Shown here: positions 32,768 to 47,920 of the stretch, one piece after another
Layout of the letters: each line of letters begins with the position of its first letter
How positions within the stretch are numbered: the first letter of the stretch is position 1
Assembly: GCA_045605265.1 (NCBI GenBank)
Contig: JAZUPQ010000011.1
Span: forward strand, 1 to 55,282
Reading direction: 5' to 3'
Origin: Eubacteriales bacterium
GTDB lineage: Bacteria; Bacillota; Clostridia; Oscillospirales; CAG-272
DNA length: 55,282 bases
Notes under the pieces: generated by a model
Database searches by the model: none
Told to the model about the DNA's origin: nothing
The model's input: the letters and a program-made list of their open reading frames with translations, nothing else
Translations under genes and position numbers: made by a program

Positions 32768-35164
32768 TTAATTCTCGCGCTGCTCGTTCCAAAACTCCAA
32801 AACGCGCTCGTTCAGCTCTTTTTGAGTAGAAACAAACCTCATCCCTGACCAAAGCTTAGGCATAATCTTTTTATAGATCGGGTCTGCAAATCTATCGTCA
32901 ATCAACACTATGACTCCGGTATCGTCTTCTCGGCGTATAACCCGTCCCGCTGCCTGTAAAACGCGGTTTATTCCGGGGTAAATATAGGCGAATTGCTTGC
33001 CCTCTTCAAATTTTTCATCATAATACGCTTGAATTGCCTCTCTTTCACAGGAGAGACTCGGCATACCTATTCCAATGATAATCGCCCCTATCAGAGCATC
33101 GCCCGCGAGGTCAATTCCCTCGGAGTATATACCTCCCATAACGCAAAATCCTATTAAATATGAGTGACTTTCTTTTGAAAATTCCGACAGAAAGTCCTCT
33201 TTTTCTTTTTTGCTCATATCCTTCGTTTGAGTAAGAACCTTAATTTTAGGATATTTTTCTCTAAAAAATGCGGATAGCTTATCATTATATTCAAAAGAAG
33301 GAGAAAAAACCAGATAATTGCCTCTTTTTGCGGATACCGTAGCGGCAACAGTTCGGCAAATTGCCAAAAGGCTGTCTTCTCGTTCGGAATATCGGGTGCT
33401 GATTTTATCCATAATTGACACCGAGACTTGACTTGAATCAAAAGGCGAAGGGAGTTCAAGAATTTGCGATGAATTGTCTGCTCCAAGTACGCTCTTGTAG
33501 TAATAAAGAGGGGCAAGCGTAGCGGAGAAAAAGACCGCGCTTTTTCCTTTTTTCAGCCTCTCCTCGATGTCGCGCCCCGGATCAATACAGAATACCTTCG
33601 CACGAATTTCTCGGTTTTCAAGATACAAAAACAACTCGTAAGATGAGGAAAAACGGTTGATGGCGGAATTGAAGGCTTTAATTTTAAAGAGATATTCTCG
33701 GATGAATTTTATGCGCTTGTCCTTTTCTTCATCCTTGGAGCCAAACTCAATAAGAAGCGCGTTTTCGCAGTGAAAAATCAACTCCGAAAAGCAGTCGTAA
33801 AATTCCTTTGGAACTTCTTTGAGATGAGCAAACGAGCTTTCGCTGCCGTCATCGCTTTTATACAAATTTTCTTTTAAGTATGGATATGTTATGTCGTAAA
33901 AACGGGTAGCCGTATCGTTTGAAATCGCTCTGAGGCTCGAATGTTCGCCAATGATTTGGCTTTTAATCGGGAGCATAATATCATCAAATGATAATTCTGC
34001 CGAGTACATTTCTCTGGCCCTATCGGGCAAATTGTGCGCTTCATCAATCAAGAATACGAACTCTCCGCCATCGTCAAAATAGCGTCTAATGTAAACATTA
34101 GTGTCAAAAATATAGTTGAAATCGCAAATTATAACATCGCAAAGCTCGCTATAAGCCAAAGATAATTCATAAGGGCAAACCGAATGTTCCTTCGCCGCTC
34201 TTTTTATCTCTTTTTCCGTGACAACAGGCAGTTTTTGTCTGTATAAATCCATAACCGCACTTGATAAATTGTTAAAATCACAGTATTTACACAGCTTTTT
34301 ACTGTTTTTGCACACAGAGTTGTTTATACAGATTTTCTCTTTTGCAGTGAGTGTAATTCCAAGAATTGTAACCTCTTGTTTACAAAAAAGCCGTATACAC
34401 TCCTCTGCTGCTAGCGCAGTAGTGGTTTTTGGGGTGAGATAAAACGCCTTTGAAATTTTCCCCTCGCCTATGCTTCTGACAGCAGGGTAAAGAGCAGATA
34501 CCGTCTTTCCCGTTCCTGTCGGGGCGGTTGCGAAAAGAGTTGTGCCGTGAGATATGCTTTTGTGCGCGCTTTGTATGAATTCCTTTTGAGACTCTCTGAG
34601 TGTCTTGTAAGGGAATTTTAGTTTTCTCATTGAGGGCAGCCTCTTTGTGACTCTCTCAATTTCCGGCTTTGCGTAAATTGATACTGCAAAAATACATTTT
34701 TCAAAAAATGCCGTCAGCTTGCCGATTGAAGCGCTCTCGGATTTTTTTTCGTATTCGCCGCTCTCCGCGTTAACGTAAAGCGTGTTTATGCTCACCGATT
34801 TTAAGCCGTGAATTTTTGCATAGAGATATGCGAAAATGAAAGCCTCGCCCCGCGCCTGCTCTTTGAGCTCCTTTGGCGTTCTTTTAGGATTAAAATTGCC
34901 TTCGCAGATTTTCGTGACGGTTGAGCTTTCCGCCTTGTCGATTTTAGCGGTGAGTTTAAAATTGTACCCGTCCAAATTCAGTATTTCTTCGATTTTATAG
35001 CCGGGATCATTTTCTAATAAGAGCCGTCTCGTATATGCGCTTGGCGCGCCGGTCCCAATATCCTCCTCGTCGAGAGGAAGGGACGCGCAAATACCCCGTC
35101 TTGCAGTCCTGACGAATTCCTTTAATGAAATGAGTATGCAGTTTTCGTGCTCCAAGTATTTCAA
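32768..35164 (-). CDS. XPD/DinG-family Fe-S ATP-dependent DNA helicase with an extra N-terminal domain of about 190 aa
   Basis: Walker A is ATAPTGTGKTVSAL and the DEAH-type box is VFLIDEAHNL. The Cys cluster between motifs Ia and II (CINNSVC..KLCKYC...VCPYE) is typical of the XPD 4Fe-4S domain. Motif VI is QAAGRVIRREDDTGVIVLIDDRF. TTG start lies 5 nt after AAAGGGGGGA. Confidence 0.85.
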   Translation of the reverse strand: MKYLEHENCILISLKEFVRTARRGICASLPLDEEDIGTGAPSAYTRRLLLENDPGYKIEEILNLDGYNFKLTAKIDKAESSTVTKICEGNFNPKRTPKELKEQARGEAFIFAYLYAKIHGLKSVSINTLYVNAESGEYEKKSESASIGKLTAFFEKCIFAVSIYAKPEIERVTKRLPSMRKLKFPYKTLRESQKEFIQSAHKSISHGTTLFATAPTGTGKTVSALYPAVRSIGEGKISKAFYLTPKTTTALAAEECIRLFCKQEVTILGITLTAKEKICINNSVCKNSKKLCKYCDFNNLSSAVMDLYRQKLPVVTEKEIKRAAKEHSVCPYELSLAYSELCDVIICDFNYIFDTNVYIRRYFDDGGEFVFLIDEAHNLPDRAREMYSAELSFDDIMLPIKSQIIGEHSSLRAISNDTATRFYDITYPYLKENLYKSDDGSESSFAHLKEVPKEFYDCFSELIFHCENALLIEFGSKDEEKDKRIKFIREYLFKIKAFNSAINRFSSSYELFLYLENREIRAKVFCIDPGRDIEERLKKGKSAVFFSATLAPLYYYKSVLGADNSSQILELPSPFDSSQVSVSIMDKISTRYSEREDSLLAICRTVAATVSAKRGNYLVFSPSFEYNDKLSAFFREKYPKIKVLTQTKDMSKKEKEDFLSEFSKESHSYLIGFCVMGGIYSEGIDLAGDALIGAIIIGIGMPSLSCEREAIQAYYDEKFEEGKQFAYIYPGINRVLQAAGRVIRREDDTGVIVLIDDRFADPIYKKIMPKLWSGMRFVSTQKELNERVLEFWNEQREN

Positions 35165-35227: not shown

Positions 35228-36067
35228 TCAATCCTTTACCCCCTCGGTACTGCTTAAAAACGCCTTCAAAAGCCTTGTTTTTGTATCGAGCCAAAGACAA
35301 ACGCTGCGTTTTGTGTAGTTGTAGCCGTGGGAATAACCCTTAAATCCGATAATCGGCAGAGAAGACAACTTCAAAATTCCGTCAATGATTTCAATCGCGC
35401 TGAGCGACTCCTTCGCCGAAAGAACTACCGAAACGGTGACCATCATACAAACGGTGGAGGGAATGAGTTTCAGCATCATAAATAAAAATTTAGTGCTTTC
35501 GGGATTTTTCAACTCACCGCGTTCGTTGATTTTGCCCTTTGTCAGCAGCACCGTAGGGGTGATTTTGCCGATTTTCATTCTATCCGCTTGCCTGAATGCC
35601 CTGACCGCCTTTTTATCGAACGGCGCTCCGTCTTTGTAGCTCTCGTATTCTCCGTAGGTATACCCAAATCTCATCAAGGCGTTTTCTCGGCGGTATTTCA
35701 ATTCCTGTTCGGTGTAATCCTTGCAGAAGCTGCGTAATTTCTCGGTGTGACTTCCGTCTATTTTTTTAAGAACTTCCTCGTAGCTTTCTCTGGCCGTTTT
35801 GTATTCGGTTGTATCTTCGCCGAGTTTTTCTCCCGCTTCTTCAAGAGAAAAATAGGTGATATAAGAGGCAATCAGCATTAAAGTCATAAGACTCGTAAAG
35901 GTTTTTGTATGAAAGTCGCAGAAGGTAACGTCTGTAAAAATCACGAGAGTGGCGACCAAAAACGTAATCACAGCAATAACCCGTCCCGCGTTGTTTGCAA
36001 GATAAGAAAAACCGCGTTTGAAAACGTCTCCGCTTTCCAAAAGAGAAAAATCAATGTTGTTTTTCAT
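35228..36067 (-). CDS. Membrane protein, unknown function (last gene of the virion module)
   Basis: 279 aa. TM helices near the N-terminus (VIAVITFLVATLVIF, LMTLMLIASYITYF) and near residue 200 (FLFMMLKLIPSTVCMMVTVSVVL). ATG 36067 overlaps the upstream gene by 17 nt. Confidence 0.6.
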   Translation of the reverse strand: MKNNIDFSLLESGDVFKRGFSYLANNAGRVIAVITFLVATLVIFTDVTFCDFHTKTFTSLMTLMLIASYITYFSLEEAGEKLGEDTTEYKTARESYEEVLKKIDGSHTEKLRSFCKDYTEQELKYRRENALMRFGYTYGEYESYKDGAPFDKKAVRAFRQADRMKIGKITPTVLLTKGKINERGELKNPESTKFLFMMLKLIPSTVCMMVTVSVVLSAKESLSAIEIIDGILKLSSLPIIGFKGYSHGYNYTKRSVCLWLDTKTRLLKAFLSSTEGVKD

Positions 36068-36407
36068 CGCCGGGTTTACCTCTTGAAAGCCTGAAAAGGA
36101 CAGAGCCGATTATATTGCCGATAAGTCCCACGAAGGATATTACAATCATCTGGTCTACAATTTTCGAAAGTGTTGTGAAAATCAGAAAAAATATCAACCA
36201 AAGCATACATACCGAAGGGGAAGAGAAGAGTCTTTTTACCGCGTTGTATAAAGGAACTGCCGACAGAAGAAGCAGCAAGAGGGTAAAGCCGCAAAGGGCG
36301 TATTCACGCCCCAGGCTTTTCCAAAGCGGAAAATAACTCAAAACTGCCGCGAGCGGCGGAACGGTACTGAAAATTATGGCGAGGAGATAGAAAAGTTTTC
36401 TCCGCAT
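36051..36407 (-). CDS. Small polytopic membrane protein (about 4 TM; holin-like by topology only)
   Basis: 118 aa, almost entirely hydrophobic helices, with a charged C-terminus (RLSRGKPGDEKQH). GGGGGA RBS is present. Confidence 0.6.
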   Translation of the reverse strand: MRRKLFYLLAIIFSTVPPLAAVLSYFPLWKSLGREYALCGFTLLLLLLSAVPLYNAVKRLFSSPSVCMLWLIFFLIFTTLSKIVDQMIVISFVGLIGNIIGSVLFRLSRGKPGDEKQH

Positions 36408-36411
36408 CGCT

Positions 36412-36987
36412 TCATTCCCCCTTGCCTATTTGTTCCTTCATAGCGGATATTTTTTCTCCCACGATGTCCTTCTGGTACTGCGGCAAGCCGCTTGTCATGA
36501 AAATATCGTAAAGCATATCGGTTTGAGCCATGAGGACGAGGTTGAATTTCTCTCGCTGGCTTTTTGACTCCTTCGCGTTTTCCAAATCGCTCTCGAGTTT
36601 TTCAAGCCTCTCTGAAAGAGCGTTCAAACATTTTTCCGTGTTCTCCAAATAAACTCCCGCATCGCCGAGTAATTTACAGGATTTGTCAAGCTGCTCTTCG
36701 CTGCTCTTCTTAATTTTAGACACAGACTCAGTAAGCTTACCGATTGCGGAATTCAGAGTCGGCAAAAGCCCCTTTTTATATGTAAATGCTAAAACGACCG
36801 AGCCGATAAAGGCGAGAGCGGATAGAATTTTATCGCTGTTTTCCACAGCTTCTCCGTATATTGAGGCGAAGAAATTTTCTTCGCTTTCAGTCTGATCTTC
36901 AACGGATATCTCCGCCGCGCTCGCAGATATTACTGTAAGCGACAGTGTTAAAATAAGCATAATGGCAAGTAAAAGTATTTTTTTCAT
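36412..36987 (-). CDS. Secreted or membrane-anchored coiled-coil protein
   Basis: Sec-type signal peptide MKKILLLAIMLILTLSLTVISASA-AE, one further hydrophobic helix (ILSALAFIGSVVLAFTY), then heptad-rich sequence. Confidence 0.6.
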   Translation of the reverse strand: MKKILLLAIMLILTLSLTVISASAAEISVEDQTESEENFFASIYGEAVENSDKILSALAFIGSVVLAFTYKKGLLPTLNSAIGKLTESVSKIKKSSEEQLDKSCKLLGDAGVYLENTEKCLNALSERLEKLESDLENAKESKSQREKFNLVLMAQTDMLYDIFMTSGLPQYQKDIVGEKISAMKEQIGKGE

Positions 36988-37004
36988 TTTGTTGTTCCTT
37001 TCTC

Positions 37005-37409
37005 TTAAATTTCGGACAGAAACAGGCTTTTGCCTTCTATCCTTTCTTGTAATTTGCAGTTCTGTTTTTCGAGCTTTTCGACTCGGTTTTGTAAATCGTC
37101 AATGCAGGATATAAGTCCGATTATAGCCTCTACGTCGGGGCGATTATGCGACACGCCCCCCGTCTTAATGAGAATTTTGCCTATTACCTCCTGCTTTTTT
37201 TCTTGGGATAGAGTGGGGGAGTGAACTCCGTATTCCGCTTTGCAGAGATTGATTTCGCCCTTGCCGTTTTCAATCCGACAGCTTTTGCCGGCGCAGAGCA
37301 AGTATGCAGAGATAGGTTCGCTGAAAACAAAGCGTGTGGGGTGTCCTTGCCCCGTGATTTTAACACACTCGAATTTTCCGAGCTTTCTTTCATAGTAAAC
37401 GGTTTGCAT
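37005..37409 (-). CDS. Hypothetical protein (C-terminal coiled coil)
   Basis: 134-aa ORF in operon context. No motif recognised. Confidence 0.55.
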   Translation of the reverse strand: MQTVYYERKLGKFECVKITGQGHPTRFVFSEPISAYLLCAGKSCRIENGKGEINLCKAEYGVHSPTLSQEKKQEVIGKILIKTGGVSHNRPDVEAIIGLISCIDDLQNRVEKLEKQNCKLQERIEGKSLFLSEI

Positions 37410-37419
37410 AGTCTCCTCC

Positions 37420-37809
37420 TTAAATTGCGATATTGAGAGACTCTGCGATTTTGTCCACGTCTTCTCTGAGCTTTGACAAATAAAGAGCTAGACTTTGATT
37501 TTCAAAGCAGGTTATGTATTCGATAAATCTTCCGCTTTTTATATCTGCAAATATATCCGACAGCTTCGGCGCGTCGCCAATGCCGGTATTCAGGCATACG
37601 GATATAGACTCGTCAACCTCTGCAAGAATATCTTCGATGAGTGAATTTAATCTCTCAACCAGAAGTAATGGCAAGGCGTCAAACGCCTCCTTCATTTGCG
37701 CGCTGGTGTAGCCTTTTCCGCCGTACTGCGTCGGCAGTGTCGGACGTGTTGGCAGTGATGCTATTCTTATTGCGTCTGCCTCGCTTTTGTAAATTGGTTT
37801 AGTTTTCAT
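37420..37809 (-). CDS. Hypothetical virion-module protein
   Basis: 129-aa ORF tightly spaced after the 909-aa gene. No motif I can name with confidence. Confidence 0.55.
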   Translation of the reverse strand: MKTKPIYKSEADAIRIASLPTRPTLPTQYGGKGYTSAQMKEAFDALPLLLVERLNSLIEDILAEVDESISVCLNTGIGDAPKLSDIFADIKSGRFIEYITCFENQSLALYLSKLREDVDKIAESLNIAI

Positions 37810-37819
37810 ATTTCCTTCC

Positions 37820-40537
37820 TTATGTGTTTTTTATTCTTCCCTTGACGTAAAATCTGTACGACATAGAGGATATGCCGAACGGAGCTCGGAATTTGTTTGA
37901 TGATACCTGTAACTGCTTTTCTATCCACCCCTTCTCCTTCTCTTTGAGAGCCACGCTGGAATAGTCGGAATTTATAAATGAGACTGACGAAAAATCGATT
38001 TCCTCGAAATTAATAATGCTATCTGGAATTTTAGAAATTTCCTCGTAGTCGGATTTATCGGTTTTAATCTCGAATTTTATATTTGCAGGCGCGAACACCC
38101 TCAATTTAGCGGAAAAGGAATTTTTAACCGTATTTTTCGTGAAATGCGGTATAGTGCAGTCGTCCATAACGCTTCTTACGACGTAGTTTGGAGAATGTCC
38201 TGCAAAATCGTAAAAATCACTGTGAATTTTAAGTGCGTTGCTCTTTCGGTATTCGTCTGCGTCAAAGCCCTCTTTTTCTGATATTCTTACAGGCGCTTGT
38301 CCTCTTTTGTCACTGTTGAAAAGGCATATATCACCATTTTCCGTGCCAAAGAATAAGAGGCTGTCCTTGTATGAGAAAATTGCGCTTTGAGGCTGCATTA
38401 TTCCACCTTGCTTTTCTTCCGTTTGATATACCTCATAGCGATCGCCGTACTCGTAGGTGTAATAATGGATATTGCCGTAAGAATCGGTGCTGATGTGTAC
38501 TTCCTTATCGGTGATTGCATCGGTATTGTAGTGAGTTCTAAATCCCGCCGTTCCCTCGGGCGAGTAGCGGAAAACCACACGCTCGTTTTTGTATGTAGCA
38601 ACGCCGTTTATAAAATACCACTCGTACTCGTAGCTGCCCGTCTCGTGTCTGAAAATTTTTCGTGAGTCGGCGAGATACATTCTCTCCTTCGCCGCTACTA
38701 CCAGATAACCGCGCCACTGCGCGAGATTTAAGCTCTCAAAGTCCTCGCTTAAAAGCTTGGGGTTGATATTGTGAGAGCGAACCTCAATGCTTTTTCCGTT
38801 TCCGTATTCGTTTTCCTTGACCGCGCATATTCCCAAATGGGATACGAAAAGAGGCGAGTCAAAGAAGGATATGGTATCGCCCAGAGCGCTCACACCGCTG
38901 TGAATATACGACACGGGGTATACCTTAGGTATAATATCTATACCTGTTTCACGGGGTGTATGATAGTATATACTGCCTCCTGTATCGTCGCCCTCCTTAA
39001 ATACGGCAATGCTGTCTCCGATTGACAAAAGCGAGCGCACCTTGTACGTACCTACGCCGTCGTTAAAGTAGTTTAAAATGCCGAAATAGAGAGCACTGTT
39101 TCTTCCGCTTCTGTCTCTTTGAGAATAGAATACAGTGTTGGGCAGGTCAGGGTTTCCCGAGAGGAATATTCTGCCGTCAAAGCTTTCGCAAACCCGGCAT
39201 TTTTTTATTGCTTCATCGCAAGGAATACTGTGTTCGGATATATAGCTTTGCGCGAATTTGCTGGCGGTAAATCTGCTTTTTTCCATTTTACCGTACACCT
39301 TGATTTCTTTTCCGTTCAAAGAGAACTTGTTATCTTCAAAAATAGTTATTCCTTGAATTAGAGAATCGCCCATTATAACGTTGAAATTCTTTGAAACTCC
39401 GCCTACCTTAACCGACAAAATGTTACAAGCCGGGCTGTAAATCGGGATTTGAATAGAGATAGAATTGTTCTCCTGCTCGTAGATTACAACGATAGGATTA
39501 AGAACGCCTGCATTTTCAACCTTGCTAAAATCGGTAGCCGTTCCCGAATAATTAATACTAGCCAAATTCTGACAACCCGAAAAAACGAGATCGCCTATTT
39601 TTTTTAGTCCTATACCGAAGTTGAACAGATAGAGCTGTGTGCAGCCTGCAAACGCGCGATCTTCGATTTCCTTCAAGCCTTCGGGAATTATTGCGCTTGT
39701 CAGATTAGTGCAGAATTTAAATGCGCTTGCGCCGATTTTGTCTATTCCTTCCGCAATCGTAAGCGTCCTTATATGCTCGTTTCTTTCAAAAGCCTTGGGT
39801 GCGATTTCCGTAACGCGATATGTACTCTCGCCGAGCTTCACCGTCGATGGAATATGAAGGCTGACGTCCTCTGTGAAATGTCCTCCTTTTACTCGGCAAG
39901 TTTTGTCTGTTTCGGAGGTTATGTCGTATTCTATTTCGGGACTCGCGGAGGCGTATGCATCGCAGTTTCCTATGTGCGTAATTTCATAAAAGTAGTCGCT
40001 GAGAAGATTTCTCTGTTCGTATTCCTCTCCGTTTACGTAAGTGGTCGGAACGTAGGGAAGATCGCTGTCCGAGTCAATATAAGAAACTTTTCCGTTACCG
40101 TCTATCACGGTTATTGTGTTTCCGTCGAGAATATAAAGGGAATTTCCGAAGTTGAAGCCGTGGCTCTTTTGATTTTGAAGATTGCCGATAGGATCCACAG
40201 ATCCCTGATATTCCATGGAATCGTCAATCAGAAATCTGTATAGAGAAGTTCCCGCGTGAAAGACGATATATTCTGTTCCGTCGTTTGTCTTGTGAGAAAA
40301 AATCGAGTGAACCTTACGGCCGATACCCGCGTAAGCGATCTTTCTGAATCCGGGTATGCTCTCGATTAATTCTCCGCCGTCACCGTCGTAATCGCGGTAC
40401 ATGTTTTCAAGATAAGAGAATCTGTTGGAGGACGGAGAATTGTTCTCGCTGGTGAAATCAACTCCGCCCATATTTTTGTAGCAAACGGTGTATTCCGTAG
40501 GGGAGTCGGCTAAATAGTTTTTCTGTTTAACGCTCAT
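37820..40537 (-). CDS. Large virion-module protein with an internal BspA-type leucine-rich-repeat (LRR_5-like) block; possible tail or nozzle/receptor-binding protein
   Basis: The block IPSTVKLGESTYRVTEIAPKAFERNEHIRTLTIAEGIDKIGASAFKFCTNLTSAIIPEGLKEIEDRAFAGCTQLYLFNFGIGLKKIGDLVFSGCQNLASINY is a classic BspA-like LRR. The flanking sequence is rich in beta-strand/propeller-like repeats. ATG 40537 lies 2 nt after the upstream stop. Confidence 0.7.
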   Translation of the reverse strand: MSVKQKNYLADSPTEYTVCYKNMGGVDFTSENNSPSSNRFSYLENMYRDYDGDGGELIESIPGFRKIAYAGIGRKVHSIFSHKTNDGTEYIVFHAGTSLYRFLIDDSMEYQGSVDPIGNLQNQKSHGFNFGNSLYILDGNTITVIDGNGKVSYIDSDSDLPYVPTTYVNGEEYEQRNLLSDYFYEITHIGNCDAYASASPEIEYDITSETDKTCRVKGGHFTEDVSLHIPSTVKLGESTYRVTEIAPKAFERNEHIRTLTIAEGIDKIGASAFKFCTNLTSAIIPEGLKEIEDRAFAGCTQLYLFNFGIGLKKIGDLVFSGCQNLASINYSGTATDFSKVENAGVLNPIVVIYEQENNSISIQIPIYSPACNILSVKVGGVSKNFNVIMGDSLIQGITIFEDNKFSLNGKEIKVYGKMEKSRFTASKFAQSYISEHSIPCDEAIKKCRVCESFDGRIFLSGNPDLPNTVFYSQRDRSGRNSALYFGILNYFNDGVGTYKVRSLLSIGDSIAVFKEGDDTGGSIYYHTPRETGIDIIPKVYPVSYIHSGVSALGDTISFFDSPLFVSHLGICAVKENEYGNGKSIEVRSHNINPKLLSEDFESLNLAQWRGYLVVAAKERMYLADSRKIFRHETGSYEYEWYFINGVATYKNERVVFRYSPEGTAGFRTHYNTDAITDKEVHISTDSYGNIHYYTYEYGDRYEVYQTEEKQGGIMQPQSAIFSYKDSLLFFGTENGDICLFNSDKRGQAPVRISEKEGFDADEYRKSNALKIHSDFYDFAGHSPNYVVRSVMDDCTIPHFTKNTVKNSFSAKLRVFAPANIKFEIKTDKSDYEEISKIPDSIINFEEIDFSSVSFINSDYSSVALKEKEKGWIEKQLQVSSNKFRAPFGISSMSYRFYVKGRIKNT

Positions 40538-40539
40538 AA

Positions 40540-41376
40540 CTACGCCCACCCGTTAGTCAGAATTTTCTGTCCTTGGCTTTCTCGGCTATAAAATTTTGTC
40601 GCGGTCATTCCCTCGCGGTACATATTATAATAGTACTGCGATTTGCCAGCGTCGTCATCAAGCCAGACGTAAGACGCCGTCAAAAGCGGAAGCAAATGCT
40701 CACATTCAACAGGAAGGTCGATTTCCTTTTCTCCGTCGTTCAAGGTAAGCGTCTCGCAGGACCTTTTGTAGCTTATATTAACAATGCCTTCGTAGTGGTA
40801 AGGGACGGTCAAATGCTTTGAGGTTGCGGTAACGTCGTATAATAGCTCGCCGTTATTTCCCGTAGGAAAGGAGGAGAAAGAGATGAAGCGATTATCGTAT
40901 TCTTTTCCATCAAACTCATAGTTGTCAAAGGGCAGCTTTATATCTTTTGGATTATCGCTGAATATTTCGGAAAACAAGGTCAAATCATAAATGCTGTAAC
41001 AGAATTCACCCTTGAAAACCAGATTTGCTTCGCCAAAGACAAAACCCTTTGTGACGGTGCCGTTACCTGAAAACTCATATTCACGGATGCCAAAATCGTC
41101 TGTAAGAGTCATTTTGCCTGTGCCGAATGAGCGAAATATAAAAGCCTTTGCCGATCCGCAAAATTCCTTGCTCTCGCTACCGGAATGTAAATATTTATTC
41201 ACATAAAGTTGATATTTTGCCTTACGGCACTCGACTTTCATGTTGGATATTACATTTCTTTCGGTAAATATTTGAGCAAGCGAACGGTTGACGGAGGAGA
41301 CGAATGATGAGTCCAGCTCAATCGCTCTTTCAAATCCTAAGGCGCACACCTCTGCTTTTAATTCGTTTAGTGTCAT
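40540..41376 (-). CDS. Hypothetical virion protein (position suggests a head-tail adaptor)
   Basis: 278-aa ORF, first gene after the capsid-like gene. The functional call rests on gene order only. Confidence 0.5.
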   Translation of the reverse strand: MTLNELKAEVCALGFERAIELDSSFVSSVNRSLAQIFTERNVISNMKVECRKAKYQLYVNKYLHSGSESKEFCGSAKAFIFRSFGTGKMTLTDDFGIREYEFSGNGTVTKGFVFGEANLVFKGEFCYSIYDLTLFSEIFSDNPKDIKLPFDNYEFDGKEYDNRFISFSSFPTGNNGELLYDVTATSKHLTVPYHYEGIVNISYKRSCETLTLNDGEKEIDLPVECEHLLPLLTASYVWLDDDAGKSQYYYNMYREGMTATKFYSRESQGQKILTNGWA

Positions 41377-41476
41377 TTCTTTTCCTTTCTGATAAAATTA
41401 AATTAGGCAGGCGCAAATTAGGTTACCCCGCATCACACCCGCCCGCACTGTTATGCGTGAAAACTGGATTTGAAGA

Positions 41477-42526
41477 TTAGATATAATCGCAGGAGCTTGC
41501 TGAAATGTTGGTCGTAACGCGGAGAATGTGCTTGTACGAGCCAAATCCTACGCCGAAACGGCATCTTCCGTTCCAAATGTAGTTGCCTGTGTGGTTTTCA
41601 ACCCAGTTTGTAATAGTGAGAGGAACACGGTTGAAGAACATATTGCCGCCGAGAGTTTCGTTGGCATCGCTTGACATAAGAATAAACTCGTCGTAAATGG
41701 TTGTCCAGTGAGGAAGAATAACGATATTCCACCTGCCGTAGTGAATGTTGATGTCGTTTTTGGAGCTTCCCGTTACGAACTCGCTGCCGCAAATCTTCTT
41801 AATCGCCTTTTCAAACTCAGGTCTGTTGCCGGGGAGAATGATGGTGTCTGCTACGTAGCCGAGGGGTTCGCCGTTTTCGTCAAGCATATTACGAAGCTTG
41901 TGGCTCGCTCTTGAAAGGAGCTCGTCCACCTTTTGTAAATTGATATATTCGCCCTCATCGTCATAGAGGTTTTCCAGCTTGAAGTAGTTGGCTTGAATAC
42001 CGTTTTTGGTAGTTGTACCCCACTTGTGAGAGTTGGAGAAGAGGGGCACTGAGTCTCCTGTTGTAAGGTCGATTGTTGCGCCTGCGATAGATGTGCTTGG
42101 ATTAGTCGCTTCGATAAGCGCCTTTTCGCAAATTTTGTCCATCGTCTTGTAGTAGGCTCTTGTGAAGTTTTCAATTCTGCGCTTTGAGTCGGCCGCAATA
42201 CCGAAGTTTGCGTCCTCCATCATCTCTGCCGTGATTGAGAATTCCTTTGTGTACTGAATGTGTTCGATGAACTTACGATAGGTCTCCTCGGTGCTGTCAA
42301 GGATAGCGGGAGCGCCTTCCTTAGTGGCTTGGAAAATATCAAAGTCACTGTTTGATACAATGGTCTCGCCATATTTGTTGCTCTTTTCTACGTTGAACAA
42401 CCAATTTCTGATACCGCCGTTTTTGGTGTATCTGTTGCTCTCGTGCTCAATCAACATCTTGATTGGGGTTTCGAGCTTTCCTATTGCGGAATTATTTAAA
42501 CCGCTTGATTTTGAATAAACAAACAT
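41477..42526 (-). CDS. Probable major capsid protein (HK97-fold type, about 349 aa)
   Basis: The call rests on position after the scaffold-like gene and on size. There is loose resemblance to podovirus/T7-type capsid proteins (for example the FSITAEMMEDANFG spine-helix-like region). Not verified by search. Confidence 0.6.
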   Translation of the reverse strand: MFVYSKSSGLNNSAIGKLETPIKMLIEHESNRYTKNGGIRNWLFNVEKSNKYGETIVSNSDFDIFQATKEGAPAILDSTEETYRKFIEHIQYTKEFSITAEMMEDANFGIAADSKRRIENFTRAYYKTMDKICEKALIEATNPSTSIAGATIDLTTGDSVPLFSNSHKWGTTTKNGIQANYFKLENLYDDEGEYINLQKVDELLSRASHKLRNMLDENGEPLGYVADTIILPGNRPEFEKAIKKICGSEFVTGSSKNDINIHYGRWNIVILPHWTTIYDEFILMSSDANETLGGNMFFNRVPLTITNWVENHTGNYIWNGRCRFGVGFGSYKHILRVTTNISASSCDYI

Positions 42527-42542
42527 ATTGGTCCTTTCCTCC

Positions 42543-42956
42543 TTATGACTCTAATCTTACTCTTATGAGTAAATTTTCTTTTGCGTTTAAAGTGTCTGTG
42601 ATTACGAAATCGCCTTCCGGATCGAAGTGGAGGCAGCAATCGGTGGGAGAGTCGTTGTCCAGGTTAACTCTTGCGCCTACCTTGATGTTATCAAGCTCCT
42701 CTCTGCTGCATTTGCACTCGAATTCCATATCGGGTGTCACTTGGTAGCAGGAAATAGTGGCGTCGGTGTCGGAGGTTTTCCCTTTTTCTTCCATCGTAAC
42801 GTAATACGGTTTTAAGTTTGAGGTGAGGTTTGTTAAACCGTCTGTCGTGTTTGAATAAGCGCAGCCTGCGTAGAAATGCATATTCGGCGTAATCTTGCGC
42901 TGTATTGGAAAGGGCACGCCTGTGGTTGAATTTGTTATGCTGATAAGTTTAAACAT
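42543..42956 (-). CDS. Hypothetical head-module protein (decoration or scaffold accessory?)
   Basis: 137-aa ORF between the scaffold-like and capsid-like genes. Confidence 0.5.
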   Translation of the reverse strand: MFKLISITNSTTGVPFPIQRKITPNMHFYAGCAYSNTTDGLTNLTSNLKPYYVTMEEKGKTSDTDATISCYQVTPDMEFECKCSREELDNIKVGARVNLDNDSPTDCCLHFDPEGDFVITDTLNAKENLLIRVRLES

Positions 42957-42959
42957 TTT

Positions 42960-43424
42960 TTAACCTTTCTGTCTTGTTACTGATTTGTATAGTTGTTGTA
43001 TTTGAGCGTCGCTCATATCTGGGAACAGTTCTCTCGCTTCTTCCATTTCTGCCCGTGTCATAGCAGAGCTTATGTTTTTTATGCTTTTGGGCATGGATGT
43101 AAGCAGATGAGAACGGTTGTCAAAATTTTTTCTCGTTCTTCTCGTGGCGAGATAAGCCTCCTCCGGAGAGAGTCCGAGGTCTCTCAGCTCAGCATATCTC
43201 ATAGGGTTTTCAAGCTCGGTGATATCCTTTATCTCCGACAGTTCCTGAAAATTTTCCGCGAGCTTGCGAAGGTCGTCTTCAACGATTTTTTCATAGTCCA
43301 CCGTCTCTTGAAGGTCATCTGCGGTGTTTTCGCAGAGTGGTTCATCCACGCTTTTTTCCTCTTTGGAAATTTCTGCAAATTCGCTTTCGGAAACAGCTTT
43401 TTCGAAATTCAAAATTTCATCCAT
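42960..43424 (-). CDS. Acidic scaffold-like protein
   Basis: 154 aa, strongly acidic and helical (MDEILNFEKAVSESEFAEISKEEKSVDEPL...). Its position between portal and capsid is typical of scaffolding proteins. Confidence 0.5.
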   Translation of the reverse strand: MDEILNFEKAVSESEFAEISKEEKSVDEPLCENTADDLQETVDYEKIVEDDLRKLAENFQELSEIKDITELENPMRYAELRDLGLSPEEAYLATRRTRKNFDNRSHLLTSMPKSIKNISSAMTRAEMEEARELFPDMSDAQIQQLYKSVTRQKG

Positions 43425-43425
43425 A

Positions 43426-43575
43426 TTACTTGCTGCCTTTCACTCTGAAATCGCCGCTTGTGGTCTTTGAAACGGCCTTGACGGTGTTCTTTTGGGGAGA
43501 AGGGGCGCTCACCTTTTCAAATCCTGTTACTCGGTAAGCGTTTGAAACTTGGTTTTGGCTGTTTTTCTTCTTCAT
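43426..43575 (-). CDS. Small, very basic protein (49 aa; below the ORF-track cutoff)
   Basis: Manual translation gives MKKKNSQNQVSNAYRVTGFEKVSAPSPQKNTVKAVSKTTSGDFRVKGSK (11 K/R versus 2 D/E). AAGGAAAG RBS is present. Its stop lies 1 nt before the next start. Confidence 0.5.
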   Translation of the reverse strand: MKKKNSQNQVSNAYRVTGFEKVSAPSPQKNTVKAVSKTTSGDFRVKGSK

Positions 43576-43589
43576 TTTTCTTTCCTTTC

Positions 43590-44255
43590 TTATCTTGAAT
43601 TTGGGATTAAATTATCCATATAACTGTCGTCGGAATATGAATAATGCTCGTTGTACTTGATTACAAAATCGGCTATCTCGTCGGCTTCGGCTTGCGAAAG
43701 ACCGCTGAACAGCGCGTAAAGCCTTGCCTCGCTTGAAGTCATATTGTTCTTTATAGCTAGATTGCCGATTTCCTTTTTGATCTCGTTTTTGGTTATTCCG
43801 GTAGTCAATTTTGCAATCTCGCGCGCTGACTCGGCGTCAACTCCGGCGCTGACAGCATAGTCAAAGGCATCGTCGTAGCTTGTGATTTTTTTACTTAAAA
43901 GCTGGTTTGCAATATCCTTTTTCAACTTACCTGCTTCATTTTGCTTGCTTGTGATATAATCGCTGTACGACTTGATGTTTTTTCTTTGATTATCCGCATA
44001 ATCCATAAGGGCGTCCGCCTTGCTTTTTTGTAAGGTTTGATACGCCTTTCCGTTTATGTAATCGGAATAACCGCTTCCCGAAAGCCCCTTTGAAGATAAG
44101 CTCTCTGACAGAGCGCCGTATCCGGACAGCGCCTTTTTGTAGTCTGTCTCCGCGTTTTTGATATTGCTGTCGTAGATTTTTTTCGAGTCTATTCCATAGG
44201 TATCAACCCAGTTTTGATAACTATTGTTTGCAGTATTTGGCTTTTTGGAGCTCAT
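43590..44255 (-). CDS. Hypothetical head-module protein
   Basis: ORF 43590-44321 in the track. ATG 44255 (MSSKKPN...) lies 14 nt after the portal stop and is the more likely start. Confidence 0.55.
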   Translation of the reverse strand: MSSKKPNTANNSYQNWVDTYGIDSKKIYDSNIKNAETDYKKALSGYGALSESLSSKGLSGSGYSDYINGKAYQTLQKSKADALMDYADNQRKNIKSYSDYITSKQNEAGKLKKDIANQLLSKKITSYDDAFDYAVSAGVDAESAREIAKLTTGITKNEIKKEIGNLAIKNNMTSSEARLYALFSGLSQAEADEIADFVIKYNEHYSYSDDSYMDNLIPNSR

Positions 44256-44271
44256 ACGGTTCTTCAAAAAA

Positions 44272-46002
44272 TTAAAAATTCCTCTGATCGCTTTCAATGG
44301 CTTCTCCTTTCTTTCCCTCAACCAAGAGGGTGAAATATTCTACGTTCTCTCTTGCGTAGGGGTAGTGCGCCCTCTCCTGACTTTGCCAGTAGCGGAGCAG
44401 GGTTATGGGATCTTCGGGTTTTCCGAGAGTGCCTGCTTTGAGGTTTTCGAGATTCCTTTGCCAGAGCGCCTCTCTCTGATATTCCGCGCCTCCGTTCAGG
44501 TCAACGGAGAACAGGTAGGAGTCGTCATAAAAATACTCCCCTGTAAATTCGTCGTAATCAACGAAATCGTATCGATTAAATTCCGCGTTATGTATTCTGC
44601 CGTAGGCGTCCCTGTAAGTAAGAGCGCGGGGTTCGTCCGCAAAAGCGAGATATTGCTCAAAAATCCTCTTGTCGAGCTCTGCGTACGCTGTGTGTTTGAG
44701 TTTTCTTTTTGATTCCAGTCTGCCGGTAGCTTGAGAAATTTTAAGCTGCCGAGCATAGCCGCTTTCAGCAGCTGAGCCCTCAATACCTTGAAGGGCGTCG
44801 GTAATTCCGAGAATTCTTTTTGAATGTTCGTAAAGACGCTCCGCCTCAATAATATCCTGACTTATATTCGGTGTGGTGTCTACCTTGCCGTATTGAGCGA
44901 CACTCTCGCCCGGCTTCATTTTTATAACCTGACCGAATATGGAATTTCCTATGGAAATAGTGGCGTCCTCCGGCATAATAGGAGTGATTTGCGCCCTTAC
45001 GAGCTTTTGCAGAATACGCGACTCGATTTTATTGATCGCCTGTTGCTCGGGGCGTATGTATTCGCAGTCGCTCTGACCGATTATCTGACGCTCGGGCGAG
45101 GGATTTTTTCTTATTACAATCGGGAAGGAGGTGGGTGTGTAATAGGGAATTCTGCCGCCTTTGGTTTTGATTTTTGGGGACAGCTCCTCAAATATTACGT
45201 CAACGCTCTCGAATTTGCTGTTTTTGCAGGTACATTCACCCTCTCTGAAGCCGCACTTTGTACAGTAATTGACTTTTCTGCGATAAAATCCGGGCAGGTC
45301 TAAAAGTAAGAGCTGACCCGAAAATACATACTTTCCAACCTGACCGTCCTCGTCCTTATAGAAACAAACGATAACGTTTACAGTATCGCTTTCCGACGGG
45401 GTATCTCCCTCAGAAAAATCTCTCTCGGCGAGTATGATATTTTCCTCGCTTACGCCGTATTTTCGCATAAGCTCTCCTGCGGAAGTGGTAAAACGCAAAA
45501 AACAGTATTCCATTTCGTCAATAGAGGCGGTAGCGGGCTCCGGAATAAAATTTTCTGGCGAAAGACAGTAAACGTCAACGCCTCCAACCTCTTTTCCGAG
45601 GCGCTTTACATTGTTCCATTCCACGTACCATACGCTTGCGCCGTAAATATAGGTGTATCGCTCGTCGCAGTCGTTCATTTGCTCAAAAGGGAGCTTGTCG
45701 CGAAGAGAGGAGAGCAGCTTTTCTATGGAAGTGGCGTTTCTTGCGCGGCGCTCGGAGTAGCACATAGCGTCTACCTTTGGCAGCGGTATATCGCAGGAAA
45801 TTTGGCTCTCTATAATCTCGTAAGTGATGTTTCGGATAGTCGAGGCATTTTCGTTAGAGCCGTCGATTTCGTAACTGCCCTTGTACTGCCGCATATTTCT
45901 GACGTACTCCTCCGCTTTTTCGGCGTAGGCGTTCTTGGCGTTCTCATAAAGTCGCGCAAAGAAGTCCAGCCGTGATTCTTTTGATGAGTTTTCTGTTGTC
46001 AC
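44272..46002 (-). CDS. Phage portal protein
   Basis: About 576 aa immediately after TerL. GTG 46002 overlaps the TerL stop (GTGA) and has GGAGAA 7 nt upstream. The N-terminal region (RLDFFARLYENAKNAYAEKAEEYVRNMRQYKG...ITYEIIESQIS) is portal-like. Confidence 0.75.
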   Translation of the reverse strand: MTTENSSKESRLDFFARLYENAKNAYAEKAEEYVRNMRQYKGSYEIDGSNENASTIRNITYEIIESQISCDIPLPKVDAMCYSERRARNATSIEKLLSSLRDKLPFEQMNDCDERYTYIYGASVWYVEWNNVKRLGKEVGGVDVYCLSPENFIPEPATASIDEMEYCFLRFTTSAGELMRKYGVSEENIILAERDFSEGDTPSESDTVNVIVCFYKDEDGQVGKYVFSGQLLLLDLPGFYRRKVNYCTKCGFREGECTCKNSKFESVDVIFEELSPKIKTKGGRIPYYTPTSFPIVIRKNPSPERQIIGQSDCEYIRPEQQAINKIESRILQKLVRAQITPIMPEDATISIGNSIFGQVIKMKPGESVAQYGKVDTTPNISQDIIEAERLYEHSKRILGITDALQGIEGSAAESGYARQLKISQATGRLESKRKLKHTAYAELDKRIFEQYLAFADEPRALTYRDAYGRIHNAEFNRYDFVDYDEFTGEYFYDDSYLFSVDLNGGAEYQREALWQRNLENLKAGTLGKPEDPITLLRYWQSQERAHYPYARENVEYFTLLVEGKKGEAIESDQRNF

Positions 46003-47363
46003 AATGGTTCTCCGTATTTTTTGATTAAGTATTGTTTTTCCTCTTTCGTGGCAGAGTGGTAATCCTCCCACATATCCACGCTCCAAATGCTTCTTCCTCT
46101 CTTTCCCTCCTCTTTTTTTGGGGATGCATAAAAGATTGCAAATCCGCGAAGAGCATCGGGGGCGTGCGTAATTTCGTGGGGTTCATTAGCGCAGTCGGTG
46201 GGCCTTATTTTATCTACGCACAGGGCGGGCAGGCATCGAATAATTTCGGTACAGCTTGAAAATATTTGAAGTCTTGCCCCGCCACCCGTGTCGCATAAAA
46301 GCTCCTTAATGGCAAGCCAGCCTGTCTCTCTGTCATTTGAGGTTTTTGTAAAATTTACGCCAAATTCGCTGAAAAGCGAAGCTTTTGTTTTTCCCGTCTC
46401 CTGACTTCTACTCCAAAGGTCGGGAGGCGCGAGGGTTGCGTAAATATCCTCGCCTACGGGTGTCCTCTCATTGATTGCTTTGGCAGAGGCGCTTATTGGA
46501 AGATTTGACTGGCAATACTCTCTGTAAACATAGACCTTTCTATCGGGGCTGATTGCTATCCAAAGACAGCACAGTCTGTCAAGTCCGTAGTCTATCGTTC
46601 TGAATTTTCGCCAGGAGCGCGGTATCTCAAAGGGAGATATAACGTGCTTGGAATGAGAAAATTCCGAGAAGTACTGTCCGTCGAATATATTCCAATCCCC
46701 GTAGAGCAGAGCCTTTCTCTCCCGTTCGGGCAGGGCTAAGAGTCTGCTTTCATACTGCGCGTCGCTCTTTATAAGAAATGAGTTGTCCTTCAAAAAAGAA
46801 GGAATGAAAATCCGCCTCATCCCTCCCTCGCCCAAAAAGGATTTTTCGGGAGAGGAGCAATCAATAAATCTCTCCTTCACCCAGGAGTGACCTATTCCGC
46901 CGGGGTTGGTGGAGGATTTTATCTGCTTTGGAAAATCGTTTGCGCCTCGGACTCTTGAAATGAGATAAACGTACTGAGCTTTTGTAAAGTGAGTCAATTC
47001 GTCAAAGCGTATGCAGTCGTATTCGGCGCTCTGATATTGATAAACGTCGTTTTCGCTAGCGCAATAGCCGAAATCAATAATAGAGCCGTTTACAAACCTG
47101 CCCGTGTGAGAGGAGGCGTTAAAGGAGTAGATTTCCTTGGGGTAAAGGGCGAGAGAGGTTCTTATCAAAGACTTGTCAAGCTCGGCGAAGGTTCGTCTTA
47201 AAACCAACTGCTTTGATTTGGGATATTTGAGCGCGAAGAGCAGAGCGTCTACCATTTGTCCATAGGATTTTCCGCCGCCCGCCGCCCCACCGAACAGCAC
47301 CTCTGACTCCGAGGCGTCGATGAATTGCTTTTGCTTTTTTGTGACTGCTATGTCTATATTCAT
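45999..47363 (-). CDS. terL: Phage terminase large subunit
   Basis: Walker A is FGGAAGGGKSYG and Walker B is YDCIRFDELTHF. The RNaseH-like nuclease domain carries FRTIDYGLD and HAPDALRGF. ATG 47363 overlaps the TerS stop (TGATG). Confidence 0.9.
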   Translation of the reverse strand: MNIDIAVTKKQKQFIDASESEVLFGGAAGGGKSYGQMVDALLFALKYPKSKQLVLRRTFAELDKSLIRTSLALYPKEIYSFNASSHTGRFVNGSIIDFGYCASENDVYQYQSAEYDCIRFDELTHFTKAQYVYLISRVRGANDFPKQIKSSTNPGGIGHSWVKERFIDCSSPEKSFLGEGGMRRIFIPSFLKDNSFLIKSDAQYESRLLALPERERKALLYGDWNIFDGQYFSEFSHSKHVISPFEIPRSWRKFRTIDYGLDRLCCLWIAISPDRKVYVYREYCQSNLPISASAKAINERTPVGEDIYATLAPPDLWSRSQETGKTKASLFSEFGVNFTKTSNDRETGWLAIKELLCDTGGGARLQIFSSCTEIIRCLPALCVDKIRPTDCANEPHEITHAPDALRGFAIFYASPKKEEGKRGRSIWSVDMWEDYHSATKEEKQYLIKKYGEPL

Positions 47364-47689
47364 CAATCCACCACCGTAATATTTAACTTGAAGGAGATTT
47401 CGTTCTCACTGTCGGCATCCGCTTCCTCCGATAGCAGAAATTTTGTAAACGATGAGTCAAACCGCTTGCATAACGCCATGTCTATAAGGTAATCCCTCCT
47501 GATTTCGCTGCATTCGCGGTAGGCCCTGTCAAAATTTCCGTGCTTTCTGTAAGAGAGAAGCTCTTGCAGAGTGAGTCCCCTTTGCCTTGCAAATTTTGAA
47601 AAGCTCGGAGCGCCCGTCCCTTCACAAAAGGTTGTGAAATAGGTGTACATCTGCCGCGGTAAATCCTTGGAGTATTTTTTCTTTCCCAT
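47363..47689 (-). CDS. terS: Phage terminase small subunit (HTH type)
   Basis: PSFSKFARQRGLTLQELLSYRK..FDRAYRECSEIRRDYLIDMAL...DSSFTKFLL matches the small-terminase HTH pattern. ATG 47689 lies 5 nt after GAGGTG. Confidence 0.75.
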   Translation of the reverse strand: MGKKKYSKDLPRQMYTYFTTFCEGTGAPSFSKFARQRGLTLQELLSYRKHGNFDRAYRECSEIRRDYLIDMALCKRFDSSFTKFLLSEEADADSENEISFKLNITVVD

Positions 47690-47920
47690 TTCATCACCTC
47701 GTTTTTTAAAATCAAGAAATTCGGCGGTTTCTCTGCCGTTCCGGACCGTCAAATCCGCTCGCTTCGTCTCTTGGCGATTTCATTTTATCACCGCTTTTGA
47801 CGAAAGTAAGTATATCGCCTTCCGAAAGAAAGAGGCTGAAAGACTGTTTTTTTAGTGCAAACTAAACAAAAGGGCTTTGCGCGGAAACGAAGCATCCGCT
47901 TAAAATATTTATAAAAAGCC

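Follow-up and report, generated by a model that had tools for sequence, protein, structure and literature searches.

The 55,282-nt contig JAZUPQ010000011.1 of an Eubacteriales bacterium, referred to here at its full length as the window, contains a block of 15 tightly packed genes (g1–g15) whose predicted content is sufficient for a phage head, a DNA-packaging motor and a short tail and includes no gene to replicate, integrate or excise. Our analyses suggest that this block is a domesticated, chromosomally fixed virion and packaging operon derived from a podovirus, which would serve as a gene transfer agent (GTA; a viriform) analogous to FpGTA, the GTA of Faecalibacterium prausnitzii, and we assign this reading a probability of roughly 0.6. 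A domesticated, GTA-like system had been put forward in a preliminary description of the window, and comparison of gene loci now supports it well, through synteny, the absence of a phage backbone, purifying selection and the intactness of orthologues. The block has passed vertically along with the host chromosome through a deep clade of uncultured gut Clostridia. All of its testable genes are kept by purifying selection and its composition is fully ameliorated to that of the host.

For a long time, to our knowledge, nearly all known GTAs came from Alphaproteobacteria. The preliminary description considered that a podovirus-like GTA was not an established system in Firmicutes, which is outdated, as FpGTA, the first such system from a gut-commensal member of this phylum, was reported in 2024–26 (Borodovich et al., Nat Commun 2026, PMC12946183; bioRxiv 2024.11.15.623857). 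A literature search returned no published description of the block family analyzed here.

Conservation, inheritance and selection of the block

Homologues of the portal protein (g3) number more than 1953 in a collection of 5.8 billion proteins, the best 120 all being 63–75% identical, and many of them lie on contigs of 100–477 kb and are therefore chromosomal. At E ≤1e-3 the portal matches only 575 of 1.84 billion 50%-identity cluster representatives, with identities graded from 62% to ~30%. When one genome per GTDB species was scanned, a portal relative was present in 99 species-representative genomes, and the loci compared in this work are the best 80 of these 99 carriers, each with ~10 kb on either side. 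The best 80 are labeled as uncultured “Eubacteriales”, “Clostridia” or “Ruminococcus” and come from the guts of yak, sheep, goat, deer, buffalo, horse and human (Hadza); one nozzle homologue named by NCBI is from a “Ruminococcaceae bacterium”.

The preliminary description had proposed that related genomes be compared for the position of the block, for decay of its orthologues, for linked integrase or replication modules and for dN/dS (the ratio of nonsynonymous to synonymous substitution rates), and each of these comparisons favors domestication. Genes in the loci were called by a simple open reading frame (ORF) picker and checked by tblastn. The whole block is present in identical gene order in at least 70 of the 80 loci (tblastn and ORF clustering), gene lengths are intact in 68–82 loci depending on the gene, and only a handful of internal disruptions are found among ~70 loci. 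The site between the MutS-like/coaW side and the helicase side that is seen in the window recurs in 17 loci (context A), in which the order is NusA, RimP, ..., CBS, coaW, MutS_V, block, DinG-like helicase. In a second host context (context B, ~40 loci) the block is downstream of an ABC-F ATPase gene, beyond which lie YggS-SepF-YggT-LspA-RluD; at least 15 of these loci have the DinG-like helicase on the downstream side of the block, and one locus has MFS/Mfd instead. A divergent clade, in which the portal is 54% identical, likewise carries the block among host genes, with a third kind of flank. No integrase, replication, lysis or other phage-backbone gene was seen beside the block in the loci inspected, the Pfam domains of neighbor genes being examined in five orthologous loci of contexts A and B. 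In IMG/VR the block family is represented by only 16 fragments of ≤16 kb and by no complete virus.

The sequence divergence of the block follows that of the host. Pairwise identities of TerL (g2) and portal correlate with those of ABC-F, MutS_V, CoaW, NusA and DinG with Pearson r values of 0.70–0.86 and with those of RluD with r values of 0.39–0.46, where correlations between host proteins are 0.46–0.84. In a neighbor-joining tree of TerL plus portal, a single clade of 21 leaves contains every one of the 17 context-A loci and no context-B member; therefore, the history of the block matches the history of chromosome rearrangement.

Selection was quantified with our own NG86 code. The closest unsaturated species pair gave dN/dS values of 0.02–0.19 for ten block genes, and the values for block genes in the five closest pairs extend up to 0.25. 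Synonymous divergence (dS) of the block genes is close to that of the neighboring host ABC-F gene (0.06–0.30 versus 0.35 in the pair L018/L024 and 0.23–0.59 versus 0.44 in the pair L025/L029). Over all usable pairs the median dN/dS values are 0.11 for TerL, 0.135 for the major capsid protein (MCP; g8), 0.17 for the portal and 0.25–0.42 for other block genes, compared to 0.06–0.15 for host genes, the higher of these all-pair values being overestimates because dS is largely saturated. The similarity in base composition to the neighboring genes, previously judged by eye, was borne out by calculation: the block has a GC content of 0.444 and a GC content at third codon positions (GC3) of 0.511 versus 0.451 and 0.494 for the host, and the relative synonymous codon usage of block and host correlates at 0.92, compared with 0.925 between two halves of the host genes. 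The vertical signal and purifying selection, by which domesticated elements are defined, exclude a recently acquired or neutrally decaying prophage.

Virion genes, expression signals and nearest phages

Fifteen consecutive minus-strand ORFs, uninterrupted from TerS to the membrane proteins as first described, occupy positions 35228-47752, and the most plausible gene starts give the limits listed in Table 1. The TerS/TerL junction is a TGATG overlap and the TerL/portal junction a GTGA overlap, g9 and g10 overlap by 10 nt and g14 and g15 by 17 nt, and the remaining intergenic gaps are 1–17 nt, save one of 100 nt behind the capsid gene. The overlaps and the 100-nt gap thus agree with the preliminary description, while one of the other gaps is 17 nt and not ≤16 nt as was given there.

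Table 1 Coordinates of the block, its genes and its expression signals in the window
Feature	Position (nt)	Strand	Basis
Block g1–g15	35228-47689	minus	15 tightly packed genes, 12.5 kb
g1, small terminase TerS, 108 aa	47363..47689	minus	phrog_3064 “terminase” at 2e-5; directly upstream of TerL
g2, large terminase TerL, ~454 aa	45999..47363	minus	phrog_979 at 3e-46; Terminase_6N
g3, portal, 576 aa	44272..46002	minus	phrog_156 at 3e-25; Pfam SU10_portal and P22_portal
g4, 221-aa protein, head-associated by position	43590..44255	minus	no family match
g5, 49-aa basic protein	43426..43575	minus	position
g6, acidic scaffold-like protein, 154 aa	42960..43424	minus	position (between portal and MCP) and composition only
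g7, 137-aa protein directly upstream of MCP	42543..42956	minus	phrog_24113 (“function unknown”) at 1.5e-4
g8, major capsid protein (MCP), 349 aa	41477..42526	minus	PF25209 Phage_capsid_4 at 4e-6; phrog_371
GC-rich hairpin without U-run, 100-nt gap	41377..41476	minus	MCP–g9 gap
g9, 278-aa head-to-tail adaptor candidate	40540..41376	minus	position and orthologue profile
g10, predicted tail nozzle, 905-909 aa	37820..40549	minus	predicted fold; LRR_5 at 1e-18
BspA-type leucine-rich repeat insert in g10, ~aa 245-341	39527-39817	minus	LRR_5
g11, 129-aa protein, conserved N-terminal domain	37420..37809	minus	orthologue comparison
g12, 134-aa protein, C-terminal coiled coil	37005..37409	minus	sequence
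g13, 191-aa protein, N-terminal signal/transmembrane segment and coiled coil	36412..36987	minus	read from sequence
g14, 118-aa membrane protein, ~four hydrophobic segments, holin-like size	36051..36407	minus	read from sequence; alignment of 22 orthologues
g15, 279-aa protein, two pairs of hydrophobic segments around a soluble domain	35228..36067	minus	read from sequence; alignment of 20 orthologues
Conserved regulatory region and 5′ leader	47690..47860	minus	comparison of upstream regions
TGCAC(T)AA box	47859-47852	minus	upstream of TerS
T-rich TTTCGGAA	~47829-47820	minus	upstream of TerS
TACTTAC, −35 region	47812-47806	minus	invariant element
Extended −10 TGATAAAAT	47790-47782	minus	17-nt spacer after −35 region
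Structured leader, ~90 nt to TerS ATG	~47690-47781	minus	folding

The block proteins were scanned against Pfam, PHROG and NCBIfam, and the other window ORFs of ≥120 aa against Pfam. The PHROG and Pfam matches confirm the labels TerS, TerL, portal, capsid and leucine-rich repeat (LRR) that had been assigned by eye, and beyond these four proteins and the g10 LRR there is no firm match to a known family in the block in any of the three collections. The features of a podovirus module are present, namely a P22/SU10-type portal and a nozzle of the gp12/gp10 type, and no long-tail gene family (tape measure, tube or sheath) was found among the block proteins. No integrase, repressor, replication or lysin domain was found in any ORF of ≥120 aa in the 55-kb window, which also contains no tRNA gene, no match to an Rfam family and no direct-repeat pair of att type bracketing the block, in agreement with the preliminary description. 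Its statement that lysis genes are lacking stands for recognizable lysin and holin domains and is limited to these, as g13–g15 are membrane proteins.

The packaging and head genes are the most readily assigned. TerS orthologues are 103–131 aa in 73 loci and have dN/dS values of 0.02–0.20 in unsaturated pairs, and TerL is 450–458 aa in 75 loci with values of 0.04–0.10; TerL also matches TIGR01547, the PBSX terminase family, below the cut-off. The portal, 570–610 aa in 82 loci, harbors an invariant CxxC...CxC motif (C247, C250, C257 and C259 in alignment A1), which suggests a zinc-binding insertion at residues 247–259. The MCP shows a dN/dS of ~0.02 in unsaturated pairs and is 28% identical to the capsid genes of the phage scaffolds MT836833 and MT837280 and 22–23% identical to annotated capsid proteins of Pelagibacter podophages; a sequence search of the MCP against the PDB gave no match. 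Among the four genes between portal and MCP, g4 is conserved in at least 52 loci and was not detected in related true phages with an orthologue hidden Markov model (HMM). At the position of g5 a gene of 43–45 aa is called in orthologous loci, with a weak HMM match in L101, and g6 is conserved in 77 loci (tblastn). The g7 orthologue HMM matches the gene of 126–131 aa that takes the equivalent place in the related podophage loci L100-L106 (1e-13 to 4e-18). A Prp-like protease was considered for g7 and rejected, as there was no Prp match in Pfam or NCBIfam.

The reading of the block as a podovirus-like module, first made from gene order, is strengthened by the predicted structure of g10. An AlphaFold2 model built on 36 homologues has a mean predicted local distance difference test (pLDDT) score of 86, and Foldseek comparison with the PDB placed podovirus nozzles at the top, those of cyanophage A4 (1.8e-17), E1004, Kp9, P-SCSP1u, LME-1, T7 (gp12), SU10, P22 (gp10) and Sf6. 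In BFVD the model matched proteins named “tail tubular protein B”, “P22 gp10 DNA-stabilising protein” and “tail knob”. LRR crystal structures matched the model at the insert only; g10 is thus predicted to be a podovirus nozzle with a grafted LRR domain. At the level of sequence profiles, g10 gave only LRR and designed-propeller matches in the PDB. The nozzle is 881–928 aa in 68 loci, and its phage homologues are 616–623 aa with no Pfam domain on record. The preceding gene, g9, is a candidate head-to-tail adaptor: it is 274–289 aa in 68 loci and its orthologue HMM matches the ~200-aa gene that immediately precedes the nozzle gene in related podophages (1e-12 to 1e-16). The g9 profile gave no match to PDB sequences, and a single-sequence AlphaFold model (pLDDT 37) was unusable.

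The distal genes are more divergent. The g11 protein has a conserved N-terminal region of ~110 aa (SLPTRPTAPxAFGGxGYTA..MKEAFDxLP), followed by C-terminal extensions that differ by lineage, and it is sometimes duplicated; it gave no family match and no PDB match by profile. By this pattern g11 appears to behave like a fiber or knob protein. A subclade of context B (L021, L025, L026, L029, L032, L034, L041, L045, L050, L052, L059, L066 and L161) has extra genes after g11. Inserted there between g11 and g12 are a second g11 copy, a protein of 380–390 aa (clusters c27 and c40) and a protein of 81 aa (c34); the inserted genes have no PHROG match and are candidates for extra receptor-binding or fiber proteins. 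At the g12 position orthologous loci have a gene of ~131 aa, g12 being fast-evolving and without a family match, and g13 is conserved in ~60 loci with weak PHROG matches only. Known holin families were considered for g14 and gave no match. Nine of the 22 g14 orthologues have weak matches, the best at 5e-4, to the effector domain CyanoTRADDas_TM, a domain of two transmembrane (TM) segments named for its association with TRADD-N domains, and one g15 orthologue matches SLATT_5. These matches give a faint hint that g14 and g15 could be membrane-perturbing proteins. The g15 protein has no family match, and its dN/dS is 0.10 in an unsaturated pair.

The phage database contained only two relatives of the block, MT836833 and MT837280, which are unannotated human-fecal scaffolds (“UNVERIFIED Bacteriophage sp.”) with identities of 38% for TerL, 30% for the portal and, as noted above, 28% for the MCP. 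Both are fragments of a large family of human-gut podovirus-like elements. Orthologue HMMs found homologues of TerL, portal, g7, MCP, g9 and g10, in conserved order, in the nearest podovirus-like loci, and did not detect TerS, g4, g6 or g11–g15 there. In one of these loci, L102 (a contig of ENA ERZ1749503), many small genes and a DNA methylase accompany TerL, portal, scaffold and MCP, after which come a gene of 203 aa, a nozzle of 616 aa, a collagen-like fiber, an M23+GH25 endolysin and a holin. Another, L105, is on a contig of 3.19 Mb (ERZ27273360) and has its portal gene behind the capsid gene, an unusual order. Thus, the source phage looks like a relative of the podovirus-like elements in human-gut metagenome assemblies, and the block looks like the virion module of an L102-type podophage in which the fiber and lysis cassette was replaced by g11–g15 and an LRR was inserted into the nozzle.

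The region upstream of TerS is also conserved. TACTTAC is present in 61 of the 74 orthologous upstream regions, in both contexts and at constant spacing to TGnTAnAAT, and TGCACAA box, TACTTAC, 17-nt spacer and extended −10 (TGnTAnAAT) have one arrangement (61/74 loci). The same upstream regions often hold a GC-rich inverted repeat and then TTTTTGGAA. The TGCACAA/TACTTAC architecture is absent from the divergent clade (L075-L081). The promoter was found solely by comparison of loci; a consensus promoter and terminator scan of the block gave sites no more numerous than in shuffled sequences. The leaders that follow are 50–200 nt long and variable in sequence, and they fold better than shuffles (median z −2.3), with a closing helix that pairs the first 12 nt with the region just before the ribosome-binding site in 49 of 60 leaders. 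An inner hairpin whose loop is of the UCCGGA type occurs in many of the leaders, and no Rfam family matches. RNAalifold predicted no pairs on a MAFFT alignment of the leaders, because their lengths differ too much, and single-sequence folds and shuffles were used. The leader could be an mRNA-stabilizing or protein-binding element. A stable hairpin without a U-run is also found in the MCP–g9 gap (median 85 nt) of every locus inspected and may set the ratio of capsid to tail expression or mRNA stability. Promoter, leader and hairpin travel with the block and not with the host neighbors, which suggests that the block has dedicated control of its expression.

Domain matches show that host genes lie on both sides of the block, consistent with the core flanks noted previously. 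To the left are the DinG/XPD-like helicase, MtnN and LuxS and, further left, a class II aminoacyl-tRNA synthetase and a radical-SAM methylthiotransferase-like protein (by domain matches only); to the right are a MutS_V protein, a type II pantothenate kinase (Fumble), CBS and NusA. The other window ORFs of ≥120 aa are housekeeping or metabolic genes, such as GpsA, sugar kinases, FeoB, acetate kinase, GreA, MnmE, Jag and YidC. The helicase (798 aa; 32768-35164, minus strand) is the next gene downstream of the block, and shares its strand, in 28 loci of both contexts; it is fast-evolving (~42% identity). Between the CBS gene and rimP/nusA is a 762-aa protein (50938-53226, plus strand) without a Pfam match, in whose position relatives have a gene of 830–980 aa of only ~26% identity, indicating a fast-evolving host protein.

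Proposed role and competing explanations

If the block is a GTA, transcription of the operon would start at the sigma-A-like promoter in a subpopulation of cells, probably aided by a host factor that recognizes the TACTTAC and TGCACAA elements. Proheads would assemble on the portal with the small scaffold protein. As there is no replicating element genome, the DNA that TerS and TerL load into the proheads by the headful mechanism would be that of the host; a GTA is defined by particles that contain essentially random host DNA in pieces too short to hold its entire encoding locus. Closure of the head would then fall to the adaptor, the nozzle and the two small proteins g11 and g12. The nozzle LRR would replace the ancestral phage fibers as the receptor-binding part, and g11 and g12 perhaps also bind related cells. 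The g13–g15 proteins would be ejection or channel proteins or, alternatively, would mediate holin-like release together with host or unlinked lysins, and the released particles would deliver their packaged DNA to kin cells.

A more detailed version of this proposal, to which we give slightly less than even odds, is that the block represents an ancient and independently domesticated podovirus-derived GTA, a viriform lineage separate from FpGTA that became fixed in a clade of family rank among the uncultured Clostridia of rumen and hindgut. It would consist of a single self-contained operon with a dedicated conserved promoter and leader, in which the fiber and lysis cassette was replaced by the LRR within the nozzle and by five new small distal proteins, three of them membrane proteins. 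Its relatives could then be the source of the GTA-like packaging that was also observed in other Ruminococcaceae, in Oscillospiraceae and in Christensenellaceae, where the loci were not found (PMC12946183).

Several findings weigh against a GTA role. Family scans gave no assignable function for g11–g15 and no match for g4 and g6 in Pfam, PHROG or NCBIfam, and there is no endolysin in or near the block, as judged from the locus and its flanks. All of the best 80 genome matches are metagenome-assembled genomes (MAGs), with no cultured host evident, and a few loci have a shortened g9, MCP or g10, owing to MAG errors or to real decay. Reverse look-up from MutS_V also returned several metagenomic contigs that carry a 70–77% identical MutS_V gene and no block upstream. 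JGI metagenome contigs with a MutS_V gene of 69–75% identity to that of the window (L109, L112, L113, L116, L118, L119 and L136) have 2–10 kb of upstream sequence without block genes. Contigs without the block upstream show other neighbors and not a MutS-DinG junction, hence no clean “empty site”. The MutS-side location of the block is thus not universal even in fairly close relatives, a finding that fits context B in those genomes.

Much of the evidence given above would serve equally for a domesticated particle that does not transfer genes. Such a particle could be a killer, PBSX-like or bacteriocin-like, or have another host role such as DNA release or anti-phage interference, with packaging kept since head maturation needs it. 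We consider this explanation unlikely, albeit the strongest of the alternatives. The conservation data do not separate it from gene transfer, the FpGTA authors raise a killer particle for FpGTA itself (PMC12946183), and the nozzle LRR and variable g11 point to selection on cell-surface recognition, which killing needs as much as transfer does. However, TerS, TerL and portal are among the most constrained proteins (dN/dS 0.02–0.1), arguing that DNA packaging itself matters. Moreover, the predicted podovirus nozzle comes without the contractile or puncturing device of known tailocins, and no toxin domain was found in family scans of the block proteins.

Somewhat less probable still is that the block is simply the orthologue of FpGTA operon I, in which case it would be an already described system in a related host. 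Both are podovirus-like blocks of Oscillospirales-type Clostridia with the order TerS-TerL-portal-MCP-nozzle and without integrase or replication genes, and both MCPs fall in the broad family PF25209. This family is also matched by N4 gp56. The FpGTA MCP (RCH50849.1) is named as N4-gp56 family by NCBI, whereas the window MCP and its L001 and L080 orthologues gave no match to TIGR04387 at E ≤10, the control N4 gp56 scoring 6e-102. BLASTP of the window MCP against N4 gp56 gave an E value of 6.8. FpGTA operon I comprises ten ORFs in 10.5 kb (TerS, TerL, portal, Prp-like, N4-gp56-family MCP, nozzle and “TolA”-like; PMC12946183), with apparently one gene, the Prp-like one, between portal and MCP as judged by the consecutive accession numbers (RCH50844-50853). 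By contrast, the block has 15 ORFs in 12.5 kb with four genes, g4–g7, in that interval, none of them Prp-like in Pfam or NCBIfam. Even in Gemmiger and Subdoligranulum no homologues turned up in the FpGTA study (PMC12946183), and there is no Faecalibacterium record among the best 80 of the 99 genome loci. Because the TIGR04387 match fails, a Prp-like gene is lacking, gene number and arrangement differ and Faecalibacterium is absent from the best 80, the block is probably a lineage separate from FpGTA as described in print, and a distant common ancestry of the two systems is given low odds.

A phage satellite resembling the capsid-forming phage-inducible chromosomal islands (cf-PICIs), or a still-mobile helper-dependent element in its integrated state, is very improbable. 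The cf-PICIs are typified by islands that combine capsid and terminase genes and lack a full phage genome, and a 2026 preprint, which reports further GTA candidates in murine gut Clostridia, describes GTA candidates and such satellites as easily confused. Yet no integrase, AlpA, primase, replication gene or att repeat was found, the block encodes its own nozzle, which cf-PICIs lack, and it has a fixed location, a phylogeny congruent with the host context and dS values equal to those of a host neighbor. Least credible of all is a defective prophage remnant that is neutrally decaying or hitch-hiking: although most of a phage genome is missing and a few loci have shortened genes, the 15 genes are preserved in order and length among species that share only 60–90% identity in the flanking housekeeping proteins, dN/dS is far below 1 for each tested gene, promoter and leader are conserved, and decay over that depth would have destroyed the ORFs. 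A prophage with att sites was rejected, as there are no bracketing repeats and no integrase, excisionase, repressor, replication or lysis modules in the window or in the inspected orthologous loci.

As a domesticated, GTA-like operon, the block would be a second, apparently independent podovirus-derived GTA lineage, in ~100 species of ruminant and human gut Clostridia. If so, repeated domestication of short-tailed phages into host-owned DNA-packaging particles is suggested in Firmicutes. The block would also illustrate evolutionary re-engineering of a phage tail, whereby the nozzle acquired the receptor-binding domain and other genes took the place of the lysis cassette. The portal, the LRR-nozzle and the promoter motif are markers for finding producers in virus-like particle (VLP) or transductomics data, and the 12.5-kb operon is compact enough for heterologous reconstitution.

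Comparison with known systems

FpGTA is the functional model for the probable role of the block. FpGTA particles are ~40 nm in size, tail-less or short-tailed, and contain random host DNA of 8.4–8.9 kb, and the system is near-ubiquitous in its host clade (PMC12946183). Like the block, FpGTA has a chromosomal, podovirus-derived operon in gut Clostridia that runs from TerS-TerL-portal through MCP to nozzle and lacks integration and replication genes, and these shared features, compared here by the published description of FpGTA, belong to the general podovirus plan. The LRR domain within the nozzle and the three distal membrane proteins are found in the block and not in FpGTA. The fiber, receptor-binding protein (RBP), holin and endolysin genes of FpGTA are in a second operon (operon II; PMC12946183), whereas no lysin locus is known for the block. 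The hosts also differ, being uncultured ruminant and hindgut Clostridia of ~44% GC for the block and Faecalibacterium for FpGTA.

The closest relatives outside the block family are the elements of the MT836833/MT837280 type, exemplified by L102, which share homologous g7, g9 and nozzle genes in the same order. Unlike the block, these elements carry many small genes, a DNA methylase, a collagen-like fiber, an M23/GH25 endolysin and a holin, and they have no detectable g11–g15.

PBSX of Bacillus subtilis resembles the block in comprising domesticated phage-like particle genes in a Gram-positive host, and it packages host DNA. PBSX differs in its long contractile tail, its induction by the SOS response and its own set of lysis genes, and its action is killing and not transfer. 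The sole PBSX match of the block is the sub-threshold one of TerL to TIGR01547. The cf-PICIs (Alqurainy et al. 2023) are likewise small islands with terminase, portal and capsid genes, but they are mobile, carry modules for integrase, regulation and replication and take their tails from a helper phage. Finally, the alphaproteobacterial GTAs of the RcGTA type (viriforms; Kogay et al. 2022, PMC9662315) share with the block a structural cluster without replication or integration genes, vertical inheritance, purifying selection and a host-like composition. They differ from the block in being proteobacterial and siphovirus-like, with an HK97-type head-tail cluster, tape measure and tube, and in their regulation by CtrA and quorum sensing, and the two systems have no sequence relation.

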